64,000 nucleotides of DNA from a virus (lineage: Duplodnaviria; Caudoviricetes). Numbering within the stretch: the stretch's first letter is position 1; the number at the start of each line of letters is the position of its first letter. Under the pieces are notes generated by a model. The model saw nothing but the letters and a program-made list of their open reading frames with translations, was not told the origin of the DNA and searched no databases. Made by a program: the position numbers and the translations under genes. Shown here in pieces: positions 3,207-52,990 of this stretch. The stretch lies in IMG/VR virus record IMGVR_UViG_3300025909_000005; one strand, written 5' to 3'.

Positions 3207-3818
3207 ATGTCACAGACCTTCAAGGAGTTTCTGGCTGAAGCCCGAGACCCGAAGCGTACCTACACCGAGAAATCCGTCAAGGGTGTCGTTGAGCGCGTTA
3301 CCGCTCAGCTCAAGGGGTCCGACTCTGGCAATTGGACGAAGCTTGCACGTCGTTACGCCCGCCTTGAGGCCAGCCTCGTTGCGCTGAAGGAACAGCGCGA
3401 CCGCCTGAACCTGACGCTCAAGGACCAAGTTGCTGACGTCTTCGATCCTGCTGACGTCGTCCTGACCCGTGTGGTTGAGACGGCTCAGTTCACGATCACG
3501 CTGAACAAGCAGACCAAGAAGCCAGACACGACTGAGACTCGCATCGACTTCGAGAAGATTGCTGGTGCCCTTGCTGAGTTGATCAGCGATGACCTGCAGC
3601 CGAAGGTCGATGAGATCGTCAAGCAGTACACGACCGTTGAGGTTGTCCCAGGCAAGACAAATGCAGCTTCGCTGAAGGTCTCCAAGGAAGAGCTCAAGGA
3701 GGCCATGTCCTTTGGTCAGGTCACGGCTTGGGTCAAGCGCATGGTCAAATCGATCACTGACTGGGCTTCGCGCTACGATCGTAAGCTTGATGGACTTCGT
3801 GCACGGGCCGGCAAGTGA
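3207..3818 (+). CDS. Putative internal head protein (coiled coil), MSQTFKEFLAE tag
   Basis: CTS-like N-terminus; late promoter. Confidence 0.6.
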   Translation: MSQTFKEFLAEARDPKRTYTEKSVKGVVERVTAQLKGSDSGNWTKLARRYARLEASLVALKEQRDRLNLTLKDQVADVFDPADVVLTRVVETAQFTITLNKQTKKPDTTETRIDFEKIAGALAELISDDLQPKVDEIVKQYTTVEVVPGKTNAASLKVSKEELKEAMSFGQVTAWVKRMVKSITDWASRYDRKLDGLRARAGK

Positions 3819-4210
3819 TCACCTTCAAGCAGTTTCTCGAGGCTGACCTCTCAAAGCTGGCCAAGGACGTCGACAGTGAGAAGGGAAACCTCAAGCTCAC
3901 GTACGATGAGTTTCGCCAGTTTCAAGACGTCATCCCCTTCGTAGAGAAACCGGACAGCTGGGATCACATCGACGAGCATACGGTTCCAAGGTCGACGATC
4001 GAGAAGATTGAGAAGTCACTGGGCTTCAAGCTTGAGACCTTCACCGTGAAGGAGCTGTTCGGTAAGTCAAGCTTGCCAAATGGTCCGCTGGCTGATGCGC
4101 ATTGGCCTGAGAATACCTACATGGGCATCCTCGAAACAGACCGTGGCTCCTACATCTTCAACACTACAGGCGCTCGCTCGTACGTTCGTTTCTGGGCAAA
4201 GATCAAATGA
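3815..4210 (+). CDS. Putative internal head protein, MITFKQFLE tag
   Basis: GTG start overlapping the upstream TGA; CTS-like N-terminus. Confidence 0.6.
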   Translation: MITFKQFLEADLSKLAKDVDSEKGNLKLTYDEFRQFQDVIPFVEKPDSWDHIDEHTVPRSTIEKIEKSLGFKLETFTVKELFGKSSLPNGPLADAHWPENTYMGILETDRGSYIFNTTGARSYVRFWAKIK

Positions 4211-4608
4211 AGCTCGGCCAACTCCACGAAGCGAGTGCGCTGTCACGAATCAAGGACAGTGTGCCTCATGATACGGTAGTTGCGCATCAGACATTCTGGG
4301 CAACGGCGCGCGCCGACTACATGAACCTGCTTGTCAAGATGATTGAGAGTGCCGGCTTTACAGATGCAGAGTCTGACTTCAAAGACGATGCAGCAACCTT
4401 CAGCGGTGATACCATCGAAGCCAAGCTGCATGGTACGTATCCCGTTTATTTCCATCTCTCAGAGTCAGGTGCAAGTTTTGTTGAGGTAGAAGCAGTCCTG
4501 TTTGGTGGTGAACACGTGTTCAGACAGAGGAATGTCAAGGACCTGAAGAAGTGCTTCGCTGAAATCGAGAGCTATGCTCGAGTGAATGGACCCGACGAGG
4601 ACGACTGA
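4207..4608 (+). CDS. Hypothetical protein, MKLGQLHEAS tag
   Basis: ATGA overlap; tag similar to 14559 and 44469. Confidence 0.55.
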   Translation: MKLGQLHEASALSRIKDSVPHDTVVAHQTFWATARADYMNLLVKMIESAGFTDAESDFKDDAATFSGDTIEAKLHGTYPVYFHLSESGASFVEVEAVLFGGEHVFRQRNVKDLKKCFAEIESYARVNGPDEDD

Positions 4609-5294
4609 TGATCCTAAGTGAAGTTGTCGACATTCACGATGTCAACTCCTCTGCTGAAAAGTGGGGCGACCTCATCGTCAAGAACTGCAAGCCGTTCCTT
4701 GCACTGGCTGGTGGCAAGCCGCTCTACCGTGGCATCCACCGCAGCAACATTGGTGGCCTGGCAACAATCACACCTCGCACTGATCGCAAGCCAATGGACA
4801 CAAAGCCCGAGGTTCAAAAGGGACTTGACAGGTACTTCGAGAAGAAGTATGGCGTCAAGCCCCGCACAGAAGGTCTGTTCACGACAGGTGACAGTCACAA
4901 CGCTGCCTCCTTCGGCCAGGTCTGCTACCTCTTCCCGCTTGGGGAGTTCAAGTACTTCTGGTTCTACGACAAGCGGTTCAAGGAAGTTCTTCGTGACACG
5001 GTCCGACTGACGCGCCACATTCGCCTTCGTGGTGATGCGCGCATCTACGACCGCGAGGACAGTGAGGAAGAACAGGAAGACCTGGCCGACTTCATTAGCC
5101 ACACGTTCAGCAAGGACGGCCCGTTTGAGATTCGTACAGACAACTTCAAGCAGGCACTGCAGTCTGGCGCGGAAATCATCGTTGTCTGCCGGCGCGCCTA
5201 TGCCGTTCCTCGCTACATTGGTGGCGACAATGGACAGGGCTTCTTTGAAGTTCACTACGACACGCTGATCCACCCTGAGGATTACCAAGAGTAA
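4608..5294 (+). CDS. Member of a five-gene paralog family, ADP-ribosyltransferase-like
   Basis: CKPFL..LYRG, TEGLFTTG, ASFGQVCYLFP, SGAEIIVVC shared with 37069, 37737, 48814, 52310. Confidence 0.5.
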   Translation: MILSEVVDIHDVNSSAEKWGDLIVKNCKPFLALAGGKPLYRGIHRSNIGGLATITPRTDRKPMDTKPEVQKGLDRYFEKKYGVKPRTEGLFTTGDSHNAASFGQVCYLFPLGEFKYFWFYDKRFKEVLRDTVRLTRHIRLRGDARIYDREDSEEEQEDLADFISHTFSKDGPFEIRTDNFKQALQSGAEIIVVCRRAYAVPRYIGGDNGQGFFEVHYDTLIHPEDYQE

Positions 5295-5301
5295 ATCGGT
5301 G

Positions 5302-5310
5302 TGTTACAAT
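5302..5310 (+). promoter_or_regulatory. Extended -10 sigma70-type promoter (TGtTACAAT)
   Basis: TG 5302-5303, TACAAT 5305-5310; AGGAG at 5322. Confidence 0.5.
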
Positions 5311-5331
5311 AGCTCTTTAGCAGGAGCGTAT

Positions 5332-5622: not shown

Positions 5623-6857
5623 TTTACAAGGTCTCCTCGACCAAGCAGCTGCACTTCTCTGATCCGCTCCATGTGGGGCGGTTCTACCCACATGCGCAGC
5701 GTGTGCACCAAGGGAAGATGCAGGAACGCCAAGACCTGATCCTCTACCTCGCGAGCATTCACGAGGCGGCGATCAAGTCTGGCATGCCTCGTGGTTTCTG
5801 TCGGATTCCGATGCGGCTCACGAGTCTGAAGGAATGGGTGCACGACTACAAGGGTGCGTTCAATCACTTCTTCACGATCGTCGAGTCAGGCTACCACATC
5901 GGCGATGATTGGCAGTACAGCGTCATCATCCCGAACGAGCTGCCACGGGATCCTGACTTCGAGCACACCGAGCGGAAACTCGTGTACGTTCCACCTCCAG
6001 TCCCCGCTCAGGGTGTCGTGTCGAAGGTGTTCGTGCAGGTGCAGAAGAAGGAGCCCATCCTCAAGAAGCTGGCCACGAACAACCGCCTGGACCTCTACGC
6101 TCCAGTCGAGTGGCTCCTGTCCCAGCCAACCAACGAGTTCAACTTCTACTTCATCCCATCTGGGAAGCTGCAGATGCGGGATACCTCGATCTGGCCAATC
6201 GCGGCCATCGAGACCTGGCCCTCGTGGCTGCGTGAGGATCTCTTTGGCCCTGGCATTGACATCGAGGCCGCGTACACCCAGTTCCTGATCGAGGGAGTTC
6301 GCAAGGCATACGAGAAGGAACCGGACATGGTTCGGATTCTCTACCCAGACCTGCTGCGTTCACTCGAGGACAAGACGCAGTGGCGCCGAGAGATCTGTGA
6401 AGATGTGCTCGGCATGGAGTGGAATGACCACAGCGTGGGCGTGGTGAAGAAGATCTGCATGAGCCTGGCCAACGGTTCAAAGATCTCACCTGGGATCCTG
6501 CTCTCGGAGATGGGTCACTCAATGACTCGCAACATTATCCTCGAAGAGTCGGCAGACGTGACTGCAAGCAAACTGATCCACATCGGTCAACGGCTCCTCA
6601 CCATTTCACGACAGTACTCCGCAGCAAAGAAGGTGGTGTGCAGGTGGGAGCTCGGCTTGGCACCAACCAGGGCCAACCAGAAGAAGGTCTTCGCTGGCTA
6701 CTTCGAGTGGGAACGTGAGGCGCGCTACAAGATCTGGGAAAGTGTTGGGAGACACGGGATCATGGTGCACGATGGGATCGACGGCATTCCTGAAGAGGAG
6801 CTCAGCCGAATCCCTGAGATCATTTCGAGCTTGAACTTGAAGCTGACCCGCTCTTAG
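5619..6857 (+). CDS. Family-A polymerase-like protein (palm/fingers only)
   Basis: SGKLQMR..., IDIEAAYTQFL (motif A-like), KKICMSLANG (motif B-like), MVHDGID (motif C-like). Confidence 0.45.
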   Translation: MIYKVSSTKQLHFSDPLHVGRFYPHAQRVHQGKMQERQDLILYLASIHEAAIKSGMPRGFCRIPMRLTSLKEWVHDYKGAFNHFFTIVESGYHIGDDWQYSVIIPNELPRDPDFEHTERKLVYVPPPVPAQGVVSKVFVQVQKKEPILKKLATNNRLDLYAPVEWLLSQPTNEFNFYFIPSGKLQMRDTSIWPIAAIETWPSWLREDLFGPGIDIEAAYTQFLIEGVRKAYEKEPDMVRILYPDLLRSLEDKTQWRREICEDVLGMEWNDHSVGVVKKICMSLANGSKISPGILLSEMGHSMTRNIILEESADVTASKLIHIGQRLLTISRQYSAAKKVVCRWELGLAPTRANQKKVFAGYFEWEREARYKIWESVGRHGIMVHDGIDGIPEEELSRIPEIISSLNLKLTRS

Positions 6858-7215
6858 ACGGGAAGATCATCACGAAGCGGTACCGGTCGGAGTGCGTGAA
6901 CTTCTGACCGGTTACCTTCACGTCTGAGTTCTGCTTCTTGATGAGATCGAGGTACTGCTTCATGCGCACGTCGGCGATCGGCGGGCTCTTTGGCGTGATT
7001 AGAGTTACCACAGCCTCGTAGTGAAACTTGTCAGGGCTACGAGGATCCTCAACCTTGACCCTCACATAGGACTGGAATGACAAACCCTTAATCTGCCTTG
7101 CGAGCATGCGAAGGGTGTACTCGGCCTTGTGCGGGTCTGACAGTGACGTGGTGACGTCATCGTAGTGGCCCTTAAGCTTGTCAAGGGCTTCGAGGAATTG
7201 GCGGAAGGTTTGCAT
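6820..7215 (-). CDS. Putative internal head protein, MQTFRQFLE tag
   Basis: CTS-like N-terminus; TAAATA on minus strand (7222-7227) 6 nt before ATG. Confidence 0.6.
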   Translation of the reverse strand: MQTFRQFLEALDKLKGHYDDVTTSLSDPHKAEYTLRMLARQIKGLSFQSYVRVKVEDPRSPDKFHYEAVVTLITPKSPPIADVRMKQYLDLIKKQNSDVKVTGQKFTHSDRYRFVMIFPSKSGSASSSSSK

Positions 7216-7252: not shown

Positions 7253-7576
7253 TCACCACTGCTGCGGGTCTTCAATCTCAACCCAGTGCTTCGCGTCTTT
7301 TTTGTAGATGAAGTGAGTTGAACTAGTTCGATCAACCTCAGTTCCGTCGGGTTTGTATGTCTCGTCGTTTCCGAAGCCCTTACGCTGCCCGATCCAGCCC
7401 TCGAGATGATAGAGGGAGTTCCATTGGTCGTACCACGCATGGATCGTGAATTGAGAAGGCTCGTACTTGCCGACCGCCAAGCACCATTCAGCCATGCGTT
7501 TGCGGAACTTCGCAGCCATCCCGGCTGGAAGCTTGGTCGGTGGCTCTACAGTCTTGGCAAGGTCTTTGAGTTTCAT
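7253..7576 (-). CDS. Hypothetical late protein, MKLKDLAK start
   Basis: Minus-strand TAAATA at 7582-7587, 5 nt before ATG. Confidence 0.6.
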   Translation of the reverse strand: MKLKDLAKTVEPPTKLPAGMAAKFRKRMAEWCLAVGKYEPSQFTIHAWYDQWNSLYHLEGWIGQRKGFGNDETYKPDGTEVDRTSSTHFIYKKDAKHWVEIEDPQQW

Positions 7577-11531: not shown

Positions 11532-13268
11532 TTGGCACAGCTCCAAAACTACTGGCGCATTATTACGCCAGCATCACGTAAGCAGTTGTATACGACACTG
11601 TCGGTAGACGCCTACGATCCGCGCACCACTGACAACTCGTCGATGACGTCCGTGCAGTGGTACTCACAGGTTCTTCGTGGTCTAGGTACTCGTCAAGCGA
11701 ACTACAAGCAGTACGATGCCATGGACATGGACATCGACATCAACCGCTCTCTCGACATCATCGCTGAGGAAATGTCTGGCAAGGACGAGAAGACCGGTTT
11801 GCCGTTCGAGATCGAGTACCAGAAGGAAGACAACCAAGACATCAGCGACACGACTGCTGTCACCCTTCGCCAGGCTGTCCGCCAGTGGTCGTCCACGCAG
11901 GACCTGAACAAGCGCATCTTCTCGATCGCCCGTCAGATGGTCAAGTACGGTGACTGCTTCTTCCGCAAGGTCTCTGACACTCAGAAGTGGGCGGCCGTTG
12001 ATCCATCTCTGGTGCACGGCATTGAGATCGACATGCTCGGCAACAAGATCGCCTATCACTTGAAGAAGCCAACGAACAACACGTTCTACGGTTCCAAGAA
12101 CGAGCAGATGGAAGTGGTGCCAGCCTCGGCCATGATTCACTTCACGCTGTCTGACGACATGGGCGACTCAGCACCGTTCGGTAACTCCGTGCTCCGCCCA
12201 ATTCACCGCGTCTACCGCCAGCTCTCCATGCTGGAAGACGCCGTCATCATCTACCGCATCGTTCGCGCACCTGAGCGTCGCCTGTTCTACATCGACGTCG
12301 GCAACATGCCACCTCAGCGCGTGAAGCAGTACCTCGAACAGATCAAGAACGAGATGCGACAGAAGCGGATCCCGGGTGTGAACGGTGGCAAGGACACCGT
12401 CGACGGTCAGCTTGACCCAATGTCCATTCAGGAAGACATGTTCTTCCCTGTCACCGCAGGTGGCCGTGGCTCACGCGTTGAGACCCTGCCTGGCGGCACT
12501 GAGGACTTCGGTACGAACCTGATCAAGCTGTTCCAAGACAAGATCTTCCGCGGTCTCCGCATCCCAACCTCGTACATGACTGGTACGGATGGTCAGGGTG
12601 CGCAGTACAACGACGGCAAGGTCGGTATTGCCTACATCGAGGAACTGCGCTTCGCTCAGTTCATTCGTCGTATGCAGGACCGCCTCGATGAGATCTTCGA
12701 CGAAGAGTTCAAGATCTACCTGAAGGTTCTCGGTCTGAAGGTCGATGATGAGATCTTCCGCATCAAGCTCCCAGATCCAGCCAATTTCGCCCTGTACCGT
12801 CAGGCCGCCCTTGACGCTGACCTGATTGGTTCGTTCAACAACATTGCCGCTGAGAAGACCTTGAGCCGCCGCTTCATCCTGAAGCGCTACCTCGGCCTGA
12901 CCGACGACGAGATCCAGATGAACGAAGTGATGCTCAAGGAAGAGCGTGGCATCCTCGAGAACGCCAACATCCCATCGATCCAGCAGATGTACGACCCAGC
13001 CGTCTACGACAACCGTGAAGCTCTCACGGTCGAGGCTGCGTCTCCTGATGCTCCTCAAGGTTCTGGCCCATCGGCCGGTGGAGATGAGGGCGGTGGTGGC
13101 GGTGGAGGAGGCGGGGAGACCGGCTTCTTCGATGAGACCGGTGGCGGTGGAGGTGAAGAAGGTGGTGGAGGTGGAGGTGGAGGTGAAGAAGCCGCTCCTG
13201 AAACTGGAGGCGCCCCAACTCCTGCACCTGCTCCGGCCCCAGCAACAGCACCTGGCCCATCGGCATGA
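11532..13268 (+). CDS. gp20: Portal protein (T4 gp20-like) with Gly/Glu/Pro low-complexity tail
   Basis: LSMLEDAVIIYRIVRAPERRLFYIDVGNMPPQRVKQYL, GRGSRVETLPGG, RGLRIPTSY, YIEELRFAQFIRRMQ. Confidence 0.95.
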   Translation: MAQLQNYWRIITPASRKQLYTTLSVDAYDPRTTDNSSMTSVQWYSQVLRGLGTRQANYKQYDAMDMDIDINRSLDIIAEEMSGKDEKTGLPFEIEYQKEDNQDISDTTAVTLRQAVRQWSSTQDLNKRIFSIARQMVKYGDCFFRKVSDTQKWAAVDPSLVHGIEIDMLGNKIAYHLKKPTNNTFYGSKNEQMEVVPASAMIHFTLSDDMGDSAPFGNSVLRPIHRVYRQLSMLEDAVIIYRIVRAPERRLFYIDVGNMPPQRVKQYLEQIKNEMRQKRIPGVNGGKDTVDGQLDPMSIQEDMFFPVTAGGRGSRVETLPGGTEDFGTNLIKLFQDKIFRGLRIPTSYMTGTDGQGAQYNDGKVGIAYIEELRFAQFIRRMQDRLDEIFDEEFKIYLKVLGLKVDDEIFRIKLPDPANFALYRQAALDADLIGSFNNIAAEKTLSRRFILKRYLGLTDDEIQMNEVMLKEERGILENANIPSIQQMYDPAVYDNREALTVEAASPDAPQGSGPSAGGDEGGGGGGGGGETGFFDETGGGGGEEGGGGGGGGEEAAPETGGAPTPAPAPAPATAPGPSA

Positions 13269-13702
13269 CCCTTCTTCTTGAAGTAACCTCAGGTTTCACC
13301 TACAAGATGGTGCGTGGGCCTGAGCTCTACGAGAAGCTCTGGCACCTGCCGGAGAATGAGGAGCTGCACAAGCGGATCAAGTACCTGTCAAGTGGTTACA
13401 GCGACTACAAGGAAGAGATTGACTGGCTCTGTCTTGAGGGTAGGAAGATTGTCGGCGTAGCCGGATTCAAGAACAACCCGTACGACAAGAACGACATGTG
13501 GATCACCTTCATCTCAGTCGATCCTGACTATCGGGAGAAGGGAATTGGCCAAGAGCTCGCCCGAAAGGTCATTCAGTTCGCAGCCAAGCACAAGCTCTCT
13601 GTCACACCATCTAGCTACACGGCCATGGGCCAGAAGTCTCTCAAGAAAATCATCGATTCTGAGGCTGAAAAGCTCGGTGTAACAGTGAACAAAGAAGGCT
13701 GA
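13265..13702 (+). CDS. GNAT-family acetyltransferase
   Basis: WITFISVDPDYREKGIGQELARKV (acetyl-CoA motif A). Confidence 0.85.
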   Translation: MTLLLEVTSGFTYKMVRGPELYEKLWHLPENEELHKRIKYLSSGYSDYKEEIDWLCLEGRKIVGVAGFKNNPYDKNDMWITFISVDPDYREKGIGQELARKVIQFAAKHKLSVTPSSYTAMGQKSLKKIIDSEAEKLGVTVNKEG

Positions 13703-13738: not shown

Positions 13739-14359
13739 ATGAAGTCCATCCTCCTCGTTGAAGACCTGACCCCAGTTCAGACCGCTCTTCGCGAACAACG
13801 TACCGCCTCTGGCGAGCTCTTCCTGAACGGCATCATGATGCAGTCTGAGCTCAAGAACGGCAACGGCCGTGTCTACCCATTGGCTGAGATCTCCCGTGCG
13901 GTGGACGAAGCTGCAAAGCGAATCGCCGAAGGCAACCCGATCATGGGCGAGCTGAACCACCCTGACGTTCTCTCGATCAACCTGGACCGCGTCTCGCACA
14001 TCATCACCGAGGTCCGCATGGACGGCAACAACGCCATCGGCAAGATGAAGCTCCTGAACACCCCAACTGGCCAGATCGCCCGCGGTCTGATCGAAGGTGG
14101 TGCACGTCTAGGTGTCTCTTCCCGTGGTACCGGCAACGTGAACGAATCTGGCGCGGTCTCTGACTTTGCCTTCGTAACTGTCGACATCGTTTCCCAGCCA
14201 TCGGCACCTGACGCCTACCCGAACGTGGTTCGTGAGGCCATGGAGAACAAGAAGATCCTGAGCCTGGCAGAAGCCGTCGTTCACGATCCGAAGGCACAGG
14301 CCTACTTCAAGAAGGAAATGTCCCTGTTCCTCGAGGCCATCACCAAGGGTAAGAAGTGA
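13739..14359 (+). CDS. gp21: Prohead core protease (T4 gp21-like)
   Basis: NGNGRVYP, GELNHP, GVSSRGTG, TVDIVSQPSAPDAY. Confidence 0.95.
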   Translation: MKSILLVEDLTPVQTALREQRTASGELFLNGIMMQSELKNGNGRVYPLAEISRAVDEAAKRIAEGNPIMGELNHPDVLSINLDRVSHIITEVRMDGNNAIGKMKLLNTPTGQIARGLIEGGARLGVSSRGTGNVNESGAVSDFAFVTVDIVSQPSAPDAYPNVVREAMENKKILSLAEAVVHDPKAQAYFKKEMSLFLEAITKGKK

Positions 14360-14562
14360 ACCTCCAAGAAGCACGCAAGTTGGCTGGTCTCCAGGAAGCC
14401 AAGAACATGAAGAACCCAAAGGTCGATGCAATGGTCGAGAAGCTCATGGGTTCCTGGAAGAAGATGTCCGAGCCAGAGTGCCAGACAGAGGTTGCCAAGC
14501 AGCTTCGTGCGGCCTACTCTGAAGGCTACAAGGACGGCTACAACGATTCCCCGAAGAAATGA
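14356..14562 (+). CDS. Small hypothetical head-region protein
   Basis: MNLQEARKLAGLQEA; GTGA overlap. Confidence 0.5.
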   Translation: MNLQEARKLAGLQEAKNMKNPKVDAMVEKLMGSWKKMSEPECQTEVAKQLRAAYSEGYKDGYNDSPKK

Positions 14563-14888
14563 AGCTGCGTGAGCTGCACGAGAGCGCCCTCTCCAACATG
14601 AAGGCAGCTCACGCCGATCTCGTCGAGGCCGCGGAGAAGATCAAGAAGTGGATGCTTCAGTCCATGGAGAAGAAGGACTGGGATCTTGAGGGCATCAAGG
14701 ACAAGGAAGTCCATGTCTACCATGATGTCGATTACGGTTTCCTTATAGGACACGTCACTTGGCGCGGTAAGGACGATCCTGAACACATTGAACATTCCTA
14801 CACGGCAGTTTTCAACCTTGACGGCACCCTCTCAGCTGACACCAGCCACGGCTATGATCCGCCTCACGGGCTTGAAAAAGTCATATGA
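14559..14888 (+). CDS. Hypothetical protein, MKLRELHES tag
   Basis: Tag plus head-cluster position. Confidence 0.55.
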   Translation: MKLRELHESALSNMKAAHADLVEAAEKIKKWMLQSMEKKDWDLEGIKDKEVHVYHDVDYGFLIGHVTWRGKDDPEHIEHSYTAVFNLDGTLSADTSHGYDPPHGLEKVI

Positions 14889-15691
14889 AATTTACCGATC
14901 TCCTTGAAGCTTCCGAACCGAAGCAGAAAGTTGGCACTTCTAACTTTGCCAAGATGTCACGTGAGCAGAAGAAGGAGTACAAGGCCATCTATTCCATGCC
15001 TGACGACACCAAGGAAGACGAGGAGGCTCACTACGCCGCGCTGGCTGCCTACGAGGAAAAGTGGCAGATCGGCAAACACGCTAAGCCGACACCTCCCAAG
15101 TTCAAGATCGGTGACTTTGTTGAAGCCAAGGGGGAGCTCGGTGTCATCACGGGCATTGACCACCAGCCGCCAGACGAGCACAACGACTACGAGCAACCTG
15201 AGATTGGCTATGACATCAAGTCGTTCGATGGTGACATTTACGCCGATGAGTCTGCCGTAAAGAAGGCAGCACGTCCAAAGCTTGATGTACATCGCTTCAA
15301 CGGCACTTCACGTGGTGCACTGGACATTCTTCAGCGCGCCATCACTAGTGGTCTATCCTACCATCTTGGCGGAACCCCAAAGAAGAAAAGCAAAGGCACT
15401 TCTGCTCTGTCACGAATGCTTGACGACTACCACCACCTGCTAGGCAACTGGACTTTCCAGGTTGACAGGGATCCCGAACATAGCCATGCCTGGCTTATCA
15501 CTGTCGCAAACACCAAAACAAAGAAGTATTTCGTTGGAATCTTCTACACGAAGGACCACCCAGACTTTGATGAAGACGAGTTTGTGGACGGCTTTGGCTC
15601 CAGTGAGAAGCAAATTTTTAAGGCGCTCGAGCATGCAGGCAGCCGTGACATTGCCCGTGAGCTCTGGGAGTGCGGCTACACTCCGGAATGA
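14885..15691 (+). CDS. Hypothetical protein, MKFTDLLEAS tag, central SH3/KOW-like segment
   Basis: PKFKIGDFVEAKGELGVITGID. Confidence 0.55.
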   Translation: MKFTDLLEASEPKQKVGTSNFAKMSREQKKEYKAIYSMPDDTKEDEEAHYAALAAYEEKWQIGKHAKPTPPKFKIGDFVEAKGELGVITGIDHQPPDEHNDYEQPEIGYDIKSFDGDIYADESAVKKAARPKLDVHRFNGTSRGALDILQRAITSGLSYHLGGTPKKKSKGTSALSRMLDDYHHLLGNWTFQVDRDPEHSHAWLITVANTKTKKYFVGIFYTKDHPDFDEDEFVDGFGSSEKQIFKALEHAGSRDIARELWECGYTPE

Positions 15692-16101: not shown

Positions 16102-17007
16102 ATGGACGAAATTCTGAACAAACTGCTTCAGTCCGAGCTTCTCAGCGAAGAAACAAAGGCTGAAATCTCCGAGCAATGGACCGCATCGGTCGAAGCCTTC
16201 AAGACCCAGGTCCGTGAAGAAGTTTCGGGTGAAGTGCGTGCAGAGCTCGCCAGCCAGTGGATTACCGAACGCGACGAGCTCATCAGCAAGGTTGATGAAT
16301 TCGTGGCCGAGGCGCTGACCAACGAAATCGAAGAACTCAAGGGTGACATCGAACGCTTCCGCGATCTGGAAGCCGAGTACGCTCTCAAGCTCGTCGAAGA
16401 AAAGCACAAGATGGCCGGCGAAGTCGCCCAGGAGCTTGACGCTCTTGTCGACAAGATCGACCAGTTCTTTGAGATGCGTCTCGCAGCCGAGATGGAAGAG
16501 CTCAAGGAAGACATCGAAGTAGTCAAGCAGAATGACTTCGGTCGCAAGATCTTTGAAGCATACGCTCAGACCTACGCAACCAACTATGTTGACGACGACT
16601 CGGTTCAGTCCAAGCTCGTTGTTGCTGAATCGAAGCTTGAAGAAGCCGAAGCTCAGCTTGCAGCTCTCGAAGAAGAGCGCAACAAGATGATTCGCGAAGC
16701 GAAGATGGAACAAGTTCTGTCGCCGCTGACTGGCAAGAAGCGCGAACAAATGGCCATGGTCCTCAAGAATGTGGACACTGGTCGTCTGGAAGAATCCTAC
16801 AAGTTCTTCATCAGCCGCATCCTCAAGGAAGACGACTCGTCGGCACCAGCCGCCAAGCCGCTGACCGAGGCTGCTAAGCCGGTTCAAACCACCGTTGCAA
16901 CGGGCGATAAGCCAGTTGCTCCAGCGCCTACTGACAGCGCTCCAACCGCTCTTCAAGAGCACCTGGCTCGCGTCCGCAGCCTCGCAGGTCTCACCAAGAC
17001 TGCCTAA
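16102..17007 (+). CDS. gp22: Prohead core scaffold protein (T4 gp22-like)
   Basis: Acidic coiled coil, FGRKIFEAY, directly upstream of the major capsid gene. Confidence 0.85.
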   Translation: MDEILNKLLQSELLSEETKAEISEQWTASVEAFKTQVREEVSGEVRAELASQWITERDELISKVDEFVAEALTNEIEELKGDIERFRDLEAEYALKLVEEKHKMAGEVAQELDALVDKIDQFFEMRLAAEMEELKEDIEVVKQNDFGRKIFEAYAQTYATNYVDDDSVQSKLVVAESKLEEAEAQLAALEEERNKMIREAKMEQVLSPLTGKKREQMAMVLKNVDTGRLEESYKFFISRILKEDDSSAPAAKPLTEAAKPVQTTVATGDKPVAPAPTDSAPTALQEHLARVRSLAGLTKTA

Positions 17008-43881: not shown

Positions 43882-44472
43882 ATGAACCTTACCTTCAAAG
43901 AATACCTGCAAGAAGAAGCCGTTGGCAACTTCAACGAGAACGAGCCACGCCACGTCTCTGACGAGTTCGTTCGTGGCGGTCGACCGCTCAACAAGGCGGC
44001 GATCAAGGAGCTGAAGGGTAAGGGGATCCAAACGGTCATCTGCCTGCTTCGCGCAGACAAGAAGTACCCAGCTGAGATCTCAGGCGTCGAAGCCGAGAAG
44101 GAAGCTGTCGAAGCTGCAGGCATGAAGTTCGTTTCCATCGATATGGACGAACGTAAGAACCCATCTGAAGCGGACATCAACAAGTTCCTGGCCGCCGTGA
44201 AGAGCGGCGGTAAGTCGTACGCGCACTGCTCCGCAGGTCGAGACCGAGTCGGCCTGATGAACGCGATCTACGACATGAAGGTCCTGCACATGTCCTACAA
44301 GGACGCGTACACCCGCTACCTCAAGGGTGGCCATGACTACGCAACCTGGACCAACCTCGACAAGTTCTTCTACAAGTACGCGCACGGCACACCTGAAGCC
44401 GCGAAGGACGCGATCGAAGCAGGCGCCCACCCAGCCGACGCGAAGTGGCTGTACCAATACATCACAGAATGA
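43882..44472 (+). CDS. Dual-specificity/tyrosine phosphatase-like protein with MNLTFKEYLQEE tag
   Basis: FVRGGRP, GIQTVICL, AHCSAGRDRVG (Cx5R); TAAATA 43871-43876, 5 nt before ATG. Confidence 0.85.
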   Translation: MNLTFKEYLQEEAVGNFNENEPRHVSDEFVRGGRPLNKAAIKELKGKGIQTVICLLRADKKYPAEISGVEAEKEAVEAAGMKFVSIDMDERKNPSEADINKFLAAVKSGGKSYAHCSAGRDRVGLMNAIYDMKVLHMSYKDAYTRYLKGGHDYATWTNLDKFFYKYAHGTPEAAKDAIEAGAHPADAKWLYQYITE

Positions 44473-45374
44473 AAGTCTCAGAACTTCTTGAGGCAAGCGC
44501 CCTTGGTCGTCTCAAGGTCGACATCGACAAGCACAAGCCAGAATTCGCTGACTTCTTCGAGGATCCAACAGATGAGTCGGCTGTGGGCAAGGGCATTCGT
44601 GCAATTGCCAAGAAGTATGGTCTCACAGTCACGCTGTTCATTCGCCGAAACAAAGCTGCAATTGTCTACTCGATCAAGCTAACCTTAACCGCGGCCGCAG
44701 AAAAGGCACTGCTTGCCAAGACAGGTGCAGAGTATGGTGTGTACAGCTTGCCAGACGGTTCACCTGAGCGCGAGGAGCAGGACGCTGCTTGGGTCCGATA
44801 CGCCGCTGAATCTAACGAGATGAAGGACAAGTTCTGGAACGAGCTGCCACGTCATGCAGGTGTTTCCACGAAGCCGGACGTTTTCTTGAAGTATGAAGGA
44901 TCAAACACAGAGGGTGAGATGCGCTTCGACACAGGAGAGGTAGAGGCTGCTGCGTTTGCCGCACAGGCTGGCGGTGGTATCCTTCTCAAGGACACGGATA
45001 AGAAGATCAGCCTGGACCACATAGAGTACCACAGGCAATATGGGAATGAACCATTCCACTTGGTCTACGTTTCTGGTGACGCCTCGCAATTGAAGAAGGT
45101 CAACAAGGTGCTGAAGCGACTGAGCGAGGAAGGTCACAATGGTGATATCGCGCTGTCACCTGCAAATCAAGAGAAGGTCGCAGAGCTTGCAGGCATCACA
45201 GAGAAGACGAAGCGCTACTACCAGAACTACATGGATCACGACAACTATAACAAGCTTGTTCCCTCGGGCGTCATGATACGCGTCTTCAAGAACGGTCAGA
45301 TCCCTAAGATGTACAAGACTGGCAAGACGCTGAAGATCACAGCAGAAGACTTTCTCAAGGTATTCCCTACCTGA
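44469..45374 (+). CDS. Hypothetical protein, MKVSELLEAS tag
   Basis: ATGA overlap; tag. Confidence 0.6.
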   Translation: MKVSELLEASALGRLKVDIDKHKPEFADFFEDPTDESAVGKGIRAIAKKYGLTVTLFIRRNKAAIVYSIKLTLTAAAEKALLAKTGAEYGVYSLPDGSPEREEQDAAWVRYAAESNEMKDKFWNELPRHAGVSTKPDVFLKYEGSNTEGEMRFDTGEVEAAAFAAQAGGGILLKDTDKKISLDHIEYHRQYGNEPFHLVYVSGDASQLKKVNKVLKRLSEEGHNGDIALSPANQEKVAELAGITEKTKRYYQNYMDHDNYNKLVPSGVMIRVFKNGQIPKMYKTGKTLKITAEDFLKVFPT

Positions 45375-47598: not shown

Positions 47599-48086
47599 TG
47601 AACCCAAAGCCAAAGTCAGACAACCCGATGCTCAGCAACGACAAGAAGCTGACGAACCCTCTGGACGAGCTCTTCAACACAGCCCAGTCTGAGGAGGTCG
47701 TTGAGTACGAACAGGTCACTGAAGGTGAGCTCGCCGAGATGGCAGAGCCAGAGAAGCCAACGAAGGACGAGGAAGACGTTGAGATCGATGCCAAGATCGA
47801 CACTGTCTACACCGCGGCCATCGATGCCTTCAACCAGCAGACGGCCTACACCGAGATCATCGAGCCTCGCTACGCAGCTCGCAATGCTGAAGTCGCCGCA
47901 AACTACCTGAACATCGCCCTCAACGCCGCCGCCACCCGTGCCCGCGTCAAGGGAGACCGTGCTCGCACGGCGAACTTCGTACCATACGCCAACGGCGGTC
48001 GAAACACCAACAACGTCGTCGTTGCCTCTCGTGAAGAAATCATGAAGATGATCAGCGTGGATGCGGACGTGAAAGAGATCAAGTGA
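47595..48086 (+). CDS. Probable terminase small subunit (T4 gp16-like)
   Basis: Helical core ARNAEVAANYLNIALNAA; C-terminal NNVVVASREEIMKMI. Confidence 0.6.
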   Translation: MMNPKPKSDNPMLSNDKKLTNPLDELFNTAQSEEVVEYEQVTEGELAEMAEPEKPTKDEEDVEIDAKIDTVYTAAIDAFNQQTAYTEIIEPRYAARNAEVAANYLNIALNAAATRARVKGDRARTANFVPYANGGRNTNNVVVASREEIMKMISVDADVKEIK

Positions 48087-48817
48087 TCACCTTCAAGCAG
48101 TTCCTTGCTGAGGCTGAAGTTGCTGGCGTCTATGTCAAGGGCCCACTGAACGTTATCTCCTCATTGATCAAGGACAAATTCAGCCTGGACTGGAGCAAGA
48201 TCTCAATGACCTGCTTGGCAGCTCAATTCGTCTTCGCGCTTGAAGCTGCTACGGATCTTCCAGCGCAGCAGCTCGTGTGGGCTGGTGAGAGAAACTTCCC
48301 TCGCATGTCAACGAGCTCGGCCACATTTGAGCAGCTCTTCAATGCGTTCAACAACAAGCCGCTCAAGCTTCGCGATGGGCGAGTTGTTACGTTCAAGCTC
48401 TCCTCACACAGCTTCACTACTCAGCAGGCAATTGAGCACGTCAAGCAGGGCATTCCTTCTGTGATGGTTGTTAACTCTGACATGGGTGATTGGGGCGGAT
48501 ACAACTACCTGACAGGTAAGGATGAGAATCCCGACTTTGAGAAGACTGGTCAGGTTTCGACAAAACACGTTCGAAAGCATAAGATCGAGGGCGGCGGGTA
48601 CTTCCACGCCCTTCTCCTTGTAGGCTATGATGAAGAATCAAAGGAGTTAATCCTTCGAGAATCACGTAGCTCGTATGGTTTCAAGGGCTACCTCAAAATT
48701 CCGGCGAAGGCCGCTACCTTCAAGCACACGCGCTTCATTGCGACGATCGTTGATTCCTACAAGATCAAGGATCCAAAGCCATCTAAGAACGACGACCACT
48801 TTGCGCAAGCCGCATGA
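48083..48817 (+). CDS. Papain-like (C1-type) cysteine peptidase with MITFKQFLAE tag
   Basis: SMTCLAAQFVFALE, FHALLLVGYD, LILRESRSSYGFKGYLKIP. Confidence 0.65.
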   Translation: MITFKQFLAEAEVAGVYVKGPLNVISSLIKDKFSLDWSKISMTCLAAQFVFALEAATDLPAQQLVWAGERNFPRMSTSSATFEQLFNAFNNKPLKLRDGRVVTFKLSSHSFTTQQAIEHVKQGIPSVMVVNSDMGDWGGYNYLTGKDENPDFEKTGQVSTKHVRKHKIEGGGYFHALLLVGYDEESKELILRESRSSYGFKGYLKIPAKAATFKHTRFIATIVDSYKIKDPKPSKNDDHFAQAA

Positions 48818-49626
48818 TCACCTTCAAACAATACCTTCAAGAGGCGCGCTACCGGACCGACATCAGCGAGGAGCGAGCCATCGACCTCCTCAAGGCAAAC
48901 TGCAGCGACGCCTTGAAGCACATCGATACGCCTCTCATTCGTGCTTCCAAGCGAAGCAGCGAACAGGCGTACATCATGCATGGCGAGCTTGGCGAACGGC
49001 AGTCTGCGTGGTCTCGAAGCAACTTCTACACCATCACTCTGGATGAGGTCAATGGCCCACAGGGTTACCCATTGCGTTCCAAGTCGGTCATCTTCGGCAA
49101 CTGGGCAAATTGGGAGAGCATGGATCATTACGCAAAGGCAGGCGGCATGTACGCGCTGTTCCCCTACGACGGCGTCAAGATTGGTGTTACGCCTAAGTGG
49201 GACCTTTGGGAAGGGCCCGCTTTTAAAATCGGTCATGGAACTCGCAGGCGCCAATTGAACGGTTGGAACAACTTCTTCCGTGCCTTGCACCTCGATGATT
49301 CCTCATATGAGGCGTTTGTTTCATCCATTGAAACTGCCATCAAGAACGAGGATGAATGGGCTGATGAACATGAGATCAAGGACGAGGACAAGGACGAGCT
49401 TGACGAACTTGTTGAGATGTTCGACAATGGTAAGGTTGATGAACAGCTTCACCGAGCATACGACGCCAAAAACCAGGACTTTGATCTTGTTGACACGCAC
49501 CTAATTTACGACATCTCCGGCACTCATGAGTGCTGGACAAGTGGGAAGTGTATTGCGTGGCGTCTAGGAAATAGCCGTGATGATGCAGAGAGCTCCCTTG
49601 CAAACCTGAAGGAGATGCTGAAGTGA
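48814..49626 (+). CDS. Divergent ART-like paralog with MITFKQYLQE tag
   Basis: PLIRA, RSKSVIF, YALFP, SGTHECW. Confidence 0.45.
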   Translation: MITFKQYLQEARYRTDISEERAIDLLKANCSDALKHIDTPLIRASKRSSEQAYIMHGELGERQSAWSRSNFYTITLDEVNGPQGYPLRSKSVIFGNWANWESMDHYAKAGGMYALFPYDGVKIGVTPKWDLWEGPAFKIGHGTRRRQLNGWNNFFRALHLDDSSYEAFVSSIETAIKNEDEWADEHEIKDEDKDELDELVEMFDNGKVDEQLHRAYDAKNQDFDLVDTHLIYDISGTHECWTSGKCIAWRLGNSRDDAESSLANLKEMLK

Positions 49627-50000
49627 TTACCTTCAAGCAGTTTCTAGAAGGGCTGAAGGACCTGGCGAAAGATGCTGATGAGAACCCACCCATTGTGCCT
49701 GTCGTTATGCTTGACGTTCTCAAGTCTCAGGCCGAGAAAAGCAAGTACAAAATGCAGATCACCAATGCCGATCCTAAGAAGGCCGAGCTGCACTTTGAGT
49801 ATCGAGATGAGAATCACATCACTCTGATGACAAGCGTGTTCTTCTACCCTGATAGAACGTCCATGCAATGGGGACGCTGGGGCGGCGGGCACTCAGGAAA
49901 CCAGTCCTTCGATCACAGCGAGTACGGCACGCCTACCGAACTGGCGCGTGTCATCCTTCATCGACTTCACTACGTGGCAGATCTTCTGTACGGACAATGA
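49623..50000 (+). CDS. Putative internal head protein, MITFKQFLE tag
   Basis: GTGA overlap; EGLKDLAK. Confidence 0.6.
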   Translation: MITFKQFLEGLKDLAKDADENPPIVPVVMLDVLKSQAEKSKYKMQITNADPKKAELHFEYRDENHITLMTSVFFYPDRTSMQWGRWGGGHSGNQSFDHSEYGTPTELARVILHRLHYVADLLYGQ

Positions 50001-50737
50001 TCACCTTCAAACAATTCATCGATGAGAGCACCAACGACAAGGGCGTCCTCAAGGCCATCTTCGTCGTGGGTATTCCTGGTGCAGGCAAGACCTACACCAT
50101 TTCCCAAATCAACGGCCGCATCGCACCAAAGCTGGTCACGATGGACACAGCTGCTGAGTACCTGATCAAGAAGCTGGGCATCCCATCGACTGACGAGACC
50201 TGGCCAAAGATCGTCGACACAGCTCGCAAGATGACACTTGGATCCCTCTACTCCTACGTGAATGGCGTGCTGCCCCTTTTCGTCGACGGAACCCTCAACG
50301 ACATCTCAAACGTTCAGTCGCGCATCAATATTCTTGAGGACATTGGCTACGACATCGGCATGGTCTACGTGCACGCTGACCTGTACACTGCGAAGTCCCG
50401 GGCTGTAGCGCGGGCAAAGGTGAATGGTCGCCACGTCTCCGACGACTTCATTGAGAAGACGCACGCTGTCTCCGAGAAGAACAAGGAGCTGTTCATGAAC
50501 CGCTTCTCGTTCTACAAGGAGGTTGACAACAGCTCGGGCGCCATGGACAATGAGGCGCTGCTGAAGATCTACCGGGCCGCTCAGGGTTTCTACAGTGAGC
50601 CAGTAAAGAACGAACGTGGTCAAGGAGTCCTTGAGAAGCTTAAGAGCGAGAAGCAGGGCTACCTCGTACCGACGATCTATCAGAAGGAAGACCTTGCCGA
50701 AAAATTGGCTGGCTGGTACAAGGGCGGACGTAAATAA
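49997..50737 (+). CDS. Zeta-toxin/AAA_33-like P-loop kinase with MITFKQFIDE tag
   Basis: FVVGIPGAGKT, LFVDGT, GYDIGMVYV, ARAKVNGRHV. Confidence 0.75.
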   Translation: MITFKQFIDESTNDKGVLKAIFVVGIPGAGKTYTISQINGRIAPKLVTMDTAAEYLIKKLGIPSTDETWPKIVDTARKMTLGSLYSYVNGVLPLFVDGTLNDISNVQSRINILEDIGYDIGMVYVHADLYTAKSRAVARAKVNGRHVSDDFIEKTHAVSEKNKELFMNRFSFYKEVDNSSGAMDNEALLKIYRAAQGFYSEPVKNERGQGVLEKLKSEKQGYLVPTIYQKEDLAEKLAGWYKGGRK

Positions 50738-50741: not shown

Positions 50742-51548
50742 ATGAAAATTGATGAACTCCTGAACCCTTTGGTTCCACAGCCCCTCCTCGAGGGCCTCAC
50801 CCTGTCCATCTATGAGGACCTGATCCAGGACCTCATGCTTGAGGACGACGCGGCTGCACCTCCTGCTGACAGTAGCCCGCCTGCTGCAACTGGTGGCACG
50901 CTTGGAACGACTGCAACCACGCCGGTCGTGGACGGCAGTGGTTCACACAGCTGCGGCCCATACGAGATTGGGCACTGGGGTGGCGGTCCAATCGGTGTTG
51001 GTCCAGTCTTCGGTGGCATGTGGTTCAATCAACTCTACGCATCTGTCAAGCAGCTCATCACCGCAAAGCGTATCAAGACACGCATGAAGCAGATTGGCAT
51101 CTCAACGAAGGGTGCTGCTCGAGTTGAGAAGGCCGCAAAGGCGGCTGCAAAGAACGTGAAGGACCTGCTGTCCAACCCACGCAGCGTTGCCTACCAGACT
51201 CCGGTTTGGACGACGCAGAAGATGCCGAAGCCGATGCTTAAGAAGTGGAATGAACACTTCGGAGAAGAGTTCCAGAAGGAGCTTGCGAAGCTGACGGTAG
51301 ACGACCTCTTTGAAGGAGTGAACGCAAACGACCTAGCCACGCAGTGGCTAGGTGTCAAGTCACTCGGTGCTGCTCAACCGGCCCTGCGTAGCGAAGAGGA
51401 GCAGTTCCTCGACCGTGGCCGTCAGGTTAAGCGCCAGGTCATTGACACGCCGATGGGAAAGACAGTCGTCATTCTCTACCAGCTCGGTGACAAGAAGATG
51501 GTCCGTCTGGAAACTGCCGATCGAAAGATGAAGTCCTACGTGGCGTAA
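50742..51548 (+). CDS. Putative internal head protein, MKIDELL tag, multiple LxE sites
   Basis: TAAATA 50731-50736, 5 nt before ATG; LLE, IYE, MLE, LFE. Confidence 0.6.
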   Translation: MKIDELLNPLVPQPLLEGLTLSIYEDLIQDLMLEDDAAAPPADSSPPAATGGTLGTTATTPVVDGSGSHSCGPYEIGHWGGGPIGVGPVFGGMWFNQLYASVKQLITAKRIKTRMKQIGISTKGAARVEKAAKAAAKNVKDLLSNPRSVAYQTPVWTTQKMPKPMLKKWNEHFGEEFQKELAKLTVDDLFEGVNANDLATQWLGVKSLGAAQPALRSEEEQFLDRGRQVKRQVIDTPMGKTVVILYQLGDKKMVRLETADRKMKSYVA

Positions 51549-51559
51549 CGAAAGCAATC

Positions 51560-51925
51560 ATGAGTTTCACTGACCTGATGTCCTACCTTCTTTACGCGGA
51601 GGTGGCGACGCAAAAGATGCACTGGAAGTCAAAGTCGTTCGCTCGCCACGTTGCGCTGGGTGACATGTACGAGGCCATGGTTGACATCGTTGACGAGCTC
51701 AATGAGATCTGGATGGGCAAGTACGGAAATGAAACTCCCATTCCTACTAAGGACTGGAACGCAGATATGACCTCCGAAAAGAGCTACATAGATCAGATGT
51801 TCGCGACCCTTGAGGCCTTCCACGGATTGGTCTTTCAGGATGGCGATGACTATATCAAGAACAAGTTCGAGGAACTACAGGCGGTCGTCGCCCGAGCGAA
51901 ATACAAGATTGATAACCTGGTGTAA
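51560..51925 (+). CDS. Ferritin/Dps-like four-helix protein (DUF5856-like)
   Basis: KMHWKSKSFARHVALGDMYE..DELNEIWMGKYG; NKFEEL..KYK. Confidence 0.65.
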   Translation: MSFTDLMSYLLYAEVATQKMHWKSKSFARHVALGDMYEAMVDIVDELNEIWMGKYGNETPIPTKDWNADMTSEKSYIDQMFATLEAFHGLVFQDGDDYIKNKFEELQAVVARAKYKIDNLV

Positions 51926-51942
51926 ATTCCACGAAAGGAACG

Positions 51943-52197
51943 ATGATGGGTATTCTGAAGAAAGTGTTGATTGCCGGTGCAGGTGCAGCGGCATCCTATT
52001 ACGCAACCAAGTGGGTCGCGCAGCTGCTTGAAGAGAAGCCGCTCGACCAACGCCTGGCCGACCTGCAAAAGATGGCGGAGGTCTACACGACCGCTGCCAA
52101 GGACGCAGGTACTGATGCAGTTGAAAAGACGATGGGCAAGAAGGACGAGCTTATCGAGGGTCTGCAAAAGTACCTGGACAGTCTGAAGAGCCAGTGA
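51943..52197 (+). CDS. Small membrane-anchored protein
   Basis: AAAGGA SD; ILKKVLIAGAGAAASYY. Confidence 0.55.
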   Translation: MMGILKKVLIAGAGAAASYYATKWVAQLLEEKPLDQRLADLQKMAEVYTTAAKDAGTDAVEKTMGKKDELIEGLQKYLDSLKSQ

Positions 52198-52313
52198 TGC
52201 TCCGCACGATCGGCAAGGTAATCGCCGGTGTGGCTGCTACGGCAGCTACGACCTACCTGGGGAAGCGCTTTCTCCAGTGGGCCGGCGTCATCAAGAAACC
52301 TCCGCAAAAGTGA
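52197..52313 (+). CDS. 38-aa amphipathic peptide (absent from ORF track)
   Basis: MLRTIGKVIAGVAATAATTYLGKRFLQWAGVIKKPPQK; overlaps both neighbours' stop/start. Confidence 0.55.
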   Translation: MLRTIGKVIAGVAATAATTYLGKRFLQWAGVIKKPPQK

Positions 52314-52990
52314 TCACCTTCAAGCAGTTCCTGAACGAAACGACGGTCGAAAAGTACTCCACGGATCTAGAAGAAATTGTGGACCTCATTCAGCAGGACT
52401 GCCAGCCATTCCTGCGCGAGGCCGGCGACTACGCGCTCTTCCGCGGGTTCAGGGGCCGACGAGGCTTGACTGATGATCACGGCCACCACATTGGGCCCAT
52501 CTACTGGCTCAAGGCAACTCCACGCACTGACCGTCGGCCACTTGACTCGTATAAGCTGGCTCATGACCTCATGGACGACTGGTTCGAGAAGAACTACGGT
52601 GTGCGCGCTCGGTCTGAGGGCGTCTTTTGCGCTCCTCGTCAGGCTCAGGCTGCTTCGTATGGGCGCGCCTTCTACGTCTTTCCAATTGGCAACTTCAAGG
52701 TTCTCTGGGCCAGCCACGATGTGGCTGGAACGAGCGGCGTCAAGGACACTGCAAGCCTCTCAGATTCCATCTACAGGTTTGCTGAGACCGTGGAGCCGGA
52801 CAAGCAGGCCGACGTTGCTGACCGCGTCATGACGAACCACAATCACTGGCATGAAGGCAACGTGAAGAAGGCAGTCCAGTCTGATGCCGAGATCACGCTC
52901 ATCTGCGACAAGTACTACGCCGTGGCCTGTGGGCCAAATGTACACTACACTGACCTCATTTCTGGAAAACAGTTGCCCCGTGAAGAGTAA
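52310..52990 (+). CDS. ART-like paralog with MITFKQFLNE tag
   Basis: LFRG, RSEGVFCAP, ASYGRAFYVFP, SDAEITLIC; GTG start. Confidence 0.5.
   Translation: MITFKQFLNETTVEKYSTDLEEIVDLIQQDCQPFLREAGDYALFRGFRGRRGLTDDHGHHIGPIYWLKATPRTDRRPLDSYKLAHDLMDDWFEKNYGVRARSEGVFCAPRQAQAASYGRAFYVFPIGNFKVLWASHDVAGTSGVKDTASLSDSIYRFAETVEPDKQADVADRVMTNHNHWHEGNVKKAVQSDAEITLICDKYYAVACGPNVHYTDLISGKQLPREE

Follow-up and report, generated by a model that had tools for sequence, protein, structure and literature searches.

A leader resembling the T4 capsid-targeting sequence begins twelve proteins in a viral genome segment

Twelve open reading frames (ORFs) in the viral genome segment IMGVR_UViG_3300025909_000005 (Duplodnaviria, Caudoviricetes; 64,000 nucleotides, hereafter the window) begin with nearly the same short peptide, of consensus M-I-T-F-K-Q-F-L-x-E. 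The best explanation of this shared N-terminus, and one held here with good confidence, is that it is this phage's version of the capsid-targeting sequence (CTS) of bacteriophage T4. Judged from its sequence, the leader is very probably a functional T4-type targeting and cleavage signal, and since the twelve genes start nearly as the T4 head-loading signal does, their products are probably cargo packaged into the virion. A preliminary description of the window had proposed that the tag is a portable address of the T4 type. The proposal was supported by an S77 prohead protease encoded in the window, by agreement at CTS positions 4, 7, 8 and 10, by tagged proteins in the virions of a cultured relative, by retention of the L/I-x-E motif in metagenomic homologs of the leader, and by protein domains that start only after it.

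Leader peptides in the window

A six-frame pattern scan with TF[KR][QE][FY][LI] identified exactly 12 matches in the window, at the same coordinates at which the preliminary description had placed its near-identical starts (Table 1; ORFs are named by the position of their start). Chance would produce far fewer: the mean was 0.01 matches in 200 mononucleotide shuffles of the window, and the expectation from composition was 0.006 for the residues of all called genes together and 0.0001 when N-terminal positions alone are counted. All 12 matches are located 1–3 codons from an ATG or GTG start, the latter used by five of the ORFs, and all the leaders follow the pattern M(x)TF[KR][QE][FY][LI]x0-1E. 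Position 4 is F and position 7 is F or Y throughout. Nine leaders are in register with M1, and in ORFs 3207, 39155 and 43882 the Met is followed by one or two additional residues. The ending is [LI]-x-E in eight leaders and F-L-E in the other four, in which the E is placed one residue earlier (position 9). The residue following the E is A or G in eight cases.

The codons of the leaders show synonymous variation (ACC/ACG, TTC/TTT, AAG/AAA, CAG/CAA, CTG/CTC/CTA/CTT/ATT/ATC), and the DNA upstream of the 12 leaders shows no conservation. Selection has thus acted on the peptide, and the conserved object is not a DNA repeat. In the five starts checked (3815, 37737, 48083, 49623 and 49997) the start codon overlaps the stop of the upstream gene as ATGA or GTGA, and this points to coupled translation within operons.

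The tags had also been said to lie in the structural or late gene blocks and not in early ones, and this distribution was recovered. No tag of this type, which we call IP-type after the T4 internal proteins (IPs), was present in the 18.4–33 kb stretch of small non-structural genes (MazG-like, RNase T), and all 12 tagged ORFs have head, neck, tail or terminase genes as neighbors. The sequence [ACG]TAAATA, resembling the T4 late promoter TATAAATA, is present at 21 sites on the plus and four on the minus strand, 6–50 nt upstream of many gene starts (for example at 13706, 33170, 40635, 43151, 45383, 52987 and 55947). Genes that have it ahead of them include those of the protease, sheath and tube and the tagged ORFs 3207, 7215 and 43882, or operons to which other tagged genes belong. 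It is probably the late promoter of the phage, and its placement is suggestive only of late expression of the tagged genes.

Head genes and comparison with T4

The window appears to be part of a T4-like myovirus genome of ca. 377 kb (376,619 bp in the database row for an apparent window protein). The genes that an IP system requires, a gp21-family S77 protease, a gp20 portal and a gp23 shell protein, are all present. The protease is 34% identical to T4 gp21, the alignment including the catalytic His and Ser blocks (GELNHP and GVSSRG), and removal of the leaders is expected to be its task. For the capsid protein the identity to T4 gp23 is 26%; all four of its [LIV]xE sites are within the first 38 residues, the presumed propeptide, the number expected elsewhere being too small for significance. 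The acidic coiled-coil protein encoded directly upstream of the capsid gene did not show a significant sequence match to gp22, and from the synteny with T4 gp22–gp23 we infer that it is a gp22-like scaffold and the docking partner of the leaders. PHROG and Pfam searches of the window further identified a gp15-like sheath stabiliser, tail sheath, tail tube, a head-closure protein and a large terminase.

In the T4 record both IPII and IPIII start with MKTYQEFIAE followed by A, identical to the published CTS and as stated in the preliminary description, and Alt and gp24 start with MELITELFDE and MAKINELLRE, respectively. Mutagenesis of T4 IPIII assigned targeting to residues 4 and 7 (aromatic/hydrophobic) and processing to residues 8 and 10, and gp21 cleaves after L/I-X-E (PMC9026906). 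The consensus of the window fits at each of these positions (aromatic at 4, F/Y at 7, L/I at 8, E at 10). Altogether the leader keeps 6–8 of the 10 CTS positions, against the much lower identities of the protease and the capsid protein.

The similarities to the IPII/IPIII signal thus include a leader of about ten residues at the extreme N-terminus, with T3, an aromatic residue at position 4, F7, I/L8 and E10, often followed by A, and its presence on otherwise unrelated proteins in genomes that both encode the gp21-family protease, gp23 and gp20. The differences are equally clear: T4 tags a few small, mostly basic and non-enzymatic proteins, whereas here the tag is found on 12 genes within 64 kb, including at least three confirmed enzyme families and an expanded paralog family. 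Positions 5–6 are K-Q instead of Q-E, and one third of the leaders are one residue shorter. T4 gene 61.1 (NC_000866, 18966–19130, minus strand; a hypothetical protein of 54 aa) starts with MKTFKEFIKE, which is closer to the tag of the window than the CTS of IPII and IPIII is.

Two other systems of capsid-delivered proteins can be compared. T4 Alt, a packaged and injected ADP-ribosyltransferase (ART), has a leader of the type M-x-[IL]-x-E-L-[FL]-x-E, similar to a second leader class of the window described below, but no protein of the window has sequence similarity to Alt. In the phiKZ-like giant phages (phiKZ, SPN3US) many packaged proteins are likewise cleaved after Glu by a gp21-related protease and ejected (PMC9026906). 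These phages form a separate lineage with an S/A-X-E cleavage motif and no described short portable N-terminal tag, unlike the window with its canonical T4-type head module.

Cultured relatives

A near-identity DNA search of the phage collection with the window produced no match, and a 39-mer of the window had no exact occurrence in IMG/VR. By capsid protein identity the closest deposited phages were Ralstonia phage RsoM2USA (51%) and Xanthomonas phage XacN1 (47%); Rak2-like jumbo phages came next. The preliminary description had proposed a pattern search of relatives, and in the whole record of RsoM2USA this identified seven matches. Six were at ORF starts (ORF89, 132, 254, 255, 385 and 404) and the seventh at an internal Met that follows the annotated start of ORF438 by 7 residues; ORF403, 90 and 258 had looser variants of the leader. 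XacN1 included one exact match and one variant (ORF299, ..KFSEYLAE).

Ten RsoM2USA proteins, among them ORF89, ORF132 and ORF438, have been identified with liquid chromatography coupled to tandem mass spectrometry of virion gel bands (PMC8504454). For ORF89 (28.56 kDa) and ORF132 (76.62 kDa) both locus tags and masses agree with that study. They carry the same leader as the proteins of the window (MKTFKQFLSE and MKTFKQFLN..LME, respectively) and were detected in purified virions; PMC8504454 mentions neither the leader nor processing. The presence of the leader on two of ten virion proteins, compared to roughly 10 of the 486 RsoM2USA ORFs, has by our own estimate a chance probability of about 0.02. 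Neither protein has a homolog in the window, and the cargo thus turns over between relatives. Others are shared: ORF255, ORF403 and ORF404 are members of the largest cargo family of the window (the 37069 family, see below), and ORF254 is a tagged ortholog of its kinase. A full-text literature search, in which older T-even work in subscription journals may be missed, found no description of the leader in XacN1- or RsoM2USA-like phages.

Metagenomic contigs

IMG/VR was searched with back-translated MITFKQF, and the tagged proteins were grouped by single linkage. The search identified at least 120 stretches with the leader, including at least 187 motif matches of which at least 182 were next to a start codon. 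The at least 158 unique tagged proteins formed at least 60 sequence clusters. The largest cluster, of at least 57 proteins, included ORFs 37069, 37737, 52310 and 48814 of the window, and the kinase and the amidoligase each had tagged orthologs. Among the matches listed, 107 proteins had been ascertained on residues 1–7 only. Position 8 was L or I in 104 of these, and 103 of the 107 had an E, which was residue 10 in 83 proteins and residue 9 in 20. As the ascertainment did not extend to these positions, the result confirms without bias that the leader includes the cleavage motif.

Neck, sheath, tube or terminase homologs were present at 46 of the 120 tagged loci among the matches listed. Codon usage in the leader follows the GC content of the genome, being ACC TTC AAG CAG here and ACA TTT AAA CAA in IMG/VR contigs. 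Near-complete or partial genomes included 1 to 8 exact matches each, compared to 12 in this window alone, which points to an expansion here.

Proteins carrying the leader

In all cases in which a tagged protein has a Pfam domain, the domain begins downstream of the leader. The preliminary description had listed enzymes among the cargo, and for three of them the family was confirmed at the sequence level by Pfam scores above the cut-off. The amidoligase 39155 scored 43.4 bits for Amidoligase_2 (cut-off 22). The phosphatase 43882 scored 35.9 bits for PTP-NADK (cut-off 27) and has an intact HCx5R motif with the catalytic Cys at residue 116. The kinase 49997 scored 39.4 bits for Zeta_toxin (cut-off 22.3) and 34.7 bits for AAA_33 (cut-off 27), and its Walker A motif GIPGAGKT is at residues 25–32; its tagged orthologs include RsoM2USA ORF254 (34% identity) and at least eight proteins in IMG/VR. 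The protease of the earlier list did not reach this level: ORF 48083 scored 17.1 bits for Peptidase_C39_2, under the 24-bit cut-off, and its language-model neighbors, which include C39-like clusters (scores 0.89–0.92), provide a lead only.

Pfam, PHROGs and the protein atlas gave nothing reliable for ORF 3207. The three small tagged proteins 3815, 49623 and 7215, with mature sizes of 116–122 aa and no enzymatic domain, have no detectable kinship beyond the leader and a short LKDLAKD-like stretch. A stretch L(K/S)(D/K)LAKDxD follows the leader E in 3815 and 49623, and it also opens the protein encoded from 7576 on the minus strand. Most of the mature cargo proteins are acidic or neutral (isoelectric point, pI, 5.0–7.2) and two are basic (9.6–9.7).

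The twelve proteins had been called unrelated, which was true of eight of them, these having no detectable mutual similarity outside the leader. The other four are paralogs: ORFs 37069, 37737 and 52310 were joined directly (BLASTP E 1e-16 to 1e-24) and ORF 48814 through intermediates. Also ORF 4608 belongs to this family without having an IP-type tag. The comparisons of 4608 with 52310 and of RsoM2USA ORF405 with ORF404 show that one cargo family can carry different leaders.

These four tagged paralogs had been described as ART-like. None of the 32 members of the family matched any ART family of Pfam, a PDB profile search with the family produced nothing relevant, and all 15 database homologs are without a name and without a Pfam domain. 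The AlphaFold2 model of the family (pLDDT 88) had no Foldseek match in PDB at E ≤ 0.001. In VIA-align no match reached the reliability mark of Z 8, the top one being BC2332 (Z 5.3), and aligned lengths were up to 132 residues. The weak matches included several ART folds: DarT (Z 4.4, 3.9, 3.8 and 3.3), Arr (3.8), AvrPphF (3.8), CopC (CopC/OspC3; 3.5) and diphtheria toxin (3.3). The conserved residues of the family are R39-G40, R105 and E197, R39 being present in at least 90% of the 32 sequences and the others invariant, and in most sequences an S follows R105; the ART triads sought were R-S-E or H-Y-E. Clusters of the AlphaFold Database included only uncharacterised cellular homologs, which align from residues 14–37 onward and lack the leader. 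With neither a Pfam or PDB sequence match nor a Foldseek match in PDB, and with ART folds only at Z 3.3–4.4, the description as ART-like was not upheld; for ORFs 37069, 37737, 52310 and 48814 the label is an open lead based on structural modelling.

On some metagenomic contigs (e.g. IMGVR_UViG_3300025920_000014) six or seven tagged genes, mostly 37069 paralogs, are in tandem over ca. 6 kb, which is a local expansion of one cargo type. PHROG 12810, a profile of 788 positions, includes the 48814 family at positions 45–247 and the kinase 49997 at positions 260–438, so that some phages seem to encode a 48814-type cargo and the kinase as one fused protein.

Second leader class

The pattern M[KR][ILVF]x[DEQ][LIV] had ten six-frame matches in the window, all of them ORF starts with at least 107 residues downstream, compared to 0.14 expected (class 2 in Table 1). 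In sequence these leaders, in short form MK[ILV]xEL, resemble the propeptides of T4 Alt and gp24.

Table 1. Tagged genes, second-class leaders and head genes of the window. The slash follows the E of the leader.
Coordinates	Strand	Type	Length (aa)	N-terminus	Product and remarks
173..952	+	class 2		MKITELLD	
959..1438	+	class 2		MKLSEIKLFEE	
1435..1764	+	class 2		MKISELLE	
3207..3818	+	IP-type	203	MSQTFKEFLAE/A	Family not assigned; mature pI 9.6; GTAAATA 30 nt upstream
3815..4210	+	IP-type	131	MITFKQFLE/ADLSKLAKD	Small; GTG start; GTGA overlap with upstream stop
4207..4608	+	class 2		MKLGQLHE	
4608..5294	+	other		MILSEVVD	Paralog of 52310, 37737 and 37069
6820..7215	-	IP-type	131	MQTFRQFLE/A	Small basic protein, pI 9.7; CTAAATA 7 nt upstream
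7253..7576	-	class 2		MKLKDLAKTVE	
11532..13268	+	head			Portal, T4 gp20 family (Portal_T4; Pfam/PHROG)
13739..14359	+	head			Prohead protease, T4 gp21 family (Peptidase_S77; E 3e-26)
14559..14888	+	class 2		MKLRELHE	In head-core gene cluster
14885..15691	+	class 2		MKFTDLLE	In head-core gene cluster
16102..17007	+	head			Candidate gp22-like scaffold; acidic coiled-coil; 19 [LIV]xE sites
17025..18293	+	head			Major capsid protein, gp23 family (Pfam Gp23)
28410..29540	+	class 2		MKINELFDQED	DUF6934; compare T4 Alt MELITELFDED
37069..37740	+	IP-type	223	MITFKQFLLE/Q	Large unannotated family (phrog_11975); weak ART-fold resemblance
37737..38366	+	IP-type	209	MKTFKQFISE/A	Paralog of 37069
39155..40603	+	IP-type	482	MKKTFKQFLE/A	Amidoligase_2 at residues 167–331; GTG start
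43882..44472	+	IP-type	196	MNLTFKEYLQE/E	Dual-specificity/PTP-type phosphatase, HCSAGRDR; GTAAATA just upstream
44469..45374	+	class 2		MKVSELLE	
48083..48817	+	IP-type	244	MITFKQFLAE/A	Possible C39-like papain-fold peptidase; GTG start
48814..49626	+	IP-type	270	MITFKQYLQE/A	phrog_12810; distant member of 37069 family
49623..50000	+	IP-type	125	MITFKQFLE/GLKDLAKD	Small; GTG start
49997..50737	+	IP-type	246	MITFKQFIDE/S	P-loop kinase (Zeta_toxin/AAA_33)
50742..51548	+	class 2		MKIDELLN	12 nt after GTAAATA
52310..52990	+	IP-type	226	MITFKQFLNE/T	Paralog of 37069, 37737 and 4608; GTG start

Discussion

If the leader works as the T4 signal does, the tagged proteins would be made late and, during prohead formation, would attach to the gp22-like scaffolding core by way of the aromatic positions 4 and 7. 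The gp21-type S77 protease would then cut after L/I-x-E at positions 8–10, and the mature protein, freed within the shell, would stay with the packaged DNA and exit with it via the tail at the next infection, on the model of T4 IPI, IPII, IPIII and Alt. The kinase, the phosphatase, the amidoligase, the possible C39-like peptidase and the unannotated family could in this way act on the host before phage gene expression. For the tagged proteins we infer that they bind the scaffold, are cleaved at the E, reside in the head and not in another part of the virion, are ejected and function as effectors. Injection, action before phage transcription and an anti-defence role would be extrapolations from T4 IPI and Alt.

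Several observations weigh against interpreting the leader as a CTS. In this phage itself the tagged-protein system is predicted from the genome sequence. The four F-L-E leaders have F instead of L or I at P3, outside the established gp21-type site. Depletion of [LI]xE within the mature tagged proteins was tested as a signature of exposure to the protease, and none was detected (26 observed, 22.7 expected); a single cleavage would therefore need to depend on accessibility. T4 gp61.1 with its CTS-like start is located in the early primase region, so that the leader alone is no proof of packaging. In the RsoM2USA proteome the masses given in PMC8504454 for ORF438 and ORF257 disagree with the GenBank ORFs; because of the mismatch for ORF438, only ORF89 and ORF132 are firm tagged virion proteins, and for these the data show presence in the whole virion, not location in the head or processing. 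Finally, the search of relatives had a negative part: an IP-type leader is absent from Rak2 and GAP32, whose head module is of the same kind, since their pattern matches were not at ORF starts and were equalled by the control counts.

The tagged proteins might also be packaged and yet have their role within the head, where they would assist in assembling the core, controlling head size, condensing DNA or balancing charge, instead of being injected as effectors. In T4, IPIII has an effect on head morphogenesis and the IPs associate with DNA (PMC9026906), the three small tagged proteins are without an enzymatic domain, two of the cargo proteins are basic, and class 2 leaders are present also in the head-core cluster (ORFs 14559 and 14885). 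For a kinase with a Walker A motif, a phosphatase with HCx5R and an amidoligase, however, there is no obvious job in a DNA-filled capsid. Most of the mature proteins are not basic, and the cargo turns over fast between relatives as is expected of arms-race genes, so that a purely head-internal role appears unlikely, although it deserves to be kept in mind. A destination outside the head is improbable. According to this explanation the leader would be a virion-assembly signal or removable propeptide that directs proteins to the neck, tail or baseplate, or that keeps enzymes inactive until cleaved. Many of the tagged genes do have neck and tail genes around them, in the interval from the 35132 gene to the gp15 homolog and in that from gp15 to the sheath gene, and whole virions are all that the RsoM2USA proteome covers. 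Against it, the leader agrees with the T4 CTS at precisely the residues that drive targeting to the prohead core, and no protease with a matching specificity is encoded here apart from the prohead protease, whose site of action is the interior of proheads.

Conservation at the nucleic-acid level, as a translation-initiation or downstream-box element or as a recombination linker for shuffling gene cassettes, is very improbable. The IP loci of T-even phages are recombination hot spots, and many of the tagged starts are translationally coupled by ATGA or GTGA overlaps. Third codon positions are nevertheless free to vary and differ with genomic GC content, the upstream DNA is unrelated, and positions 8 and 10 are kept as amino acids. 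That the shared start is a relic of one old gene family, the C-terminal parts of which have diverged beyond recognition, is scarcely credible even though four of the 12 proteins are paralogs: the amidoligase, the PTP-type phosphatase and the P-loop kinase belong to different Pfam families with unrelated folds and have domains starting after the leader, cellular homologs are without it, and a single family can carry either leader type.

The loading of diverse proteins by CTS in T4-like phages has already been published (PMC9026906), and in this sense the kind of system is known. What is new is that the signal is nearly identical in very distant phages, that the cargo proteins are many and include enzymes, and that a cultured relative has matching proteome data. 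To our knowledge, work on the T4 CTS has been confined almost entirely to T4 itself and to engineering uses. In the present case the leader persists nearly unchanged in phages whose capsid proteins share only about 26% of their residues with that of T4, and it is carried by many enzymes instead of a few small basic proteins.

The two leader classes could together be a computable address label for the whole proteome that is packaged and injected in a large clade of T4-like and jumbo phages, most of them uncultured; we consider the chances of this slightly below even. If it were so, more than 20 different proteins from this 64-kb window, and more genome-wide, would be loaded into the head, including kinases, phosphatases, amidoligases and a large unannotated family possibly of ART fold. 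The capsid would then be a multi-effector delivery device, and the ca. 60 tagged clusters a catalogue of new host-takeover and anti-defence proteins. Proteins delivered together with phage DNA are experimentally hard to find, and they include the anti-restriction protein IPI and the takeover factor Alt. A simple sequence rule would predict the proteins that enter the cell together with a phage's DNA. RsoM2USA provides a cultured system for a direct test of the rule, and the abundant unannotated cargo family merits biochemistry.

Other genes of the window

A GNAT acetyltransferase gene (13265–13702) is located between the portal and protease genes, a place that in T4 is taken by core genes 67 and 68. 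Its product starts with MTLLLE, a possible L-x-E leader, and the same layout is present on other metagenomic contigs. Two adjacent ORFs, 53596–54396 and 54381–55937, match large-terminase families, the first covering the ATPase part only, and they may represent a split or duplicated large terminase gene. Just upstream of them is an alpha/beta-hydrolase or lipase-like gene (53015–53599) without the leader; in XacN1 the lipase ORF279 has been reported in virions (PMC5852040).

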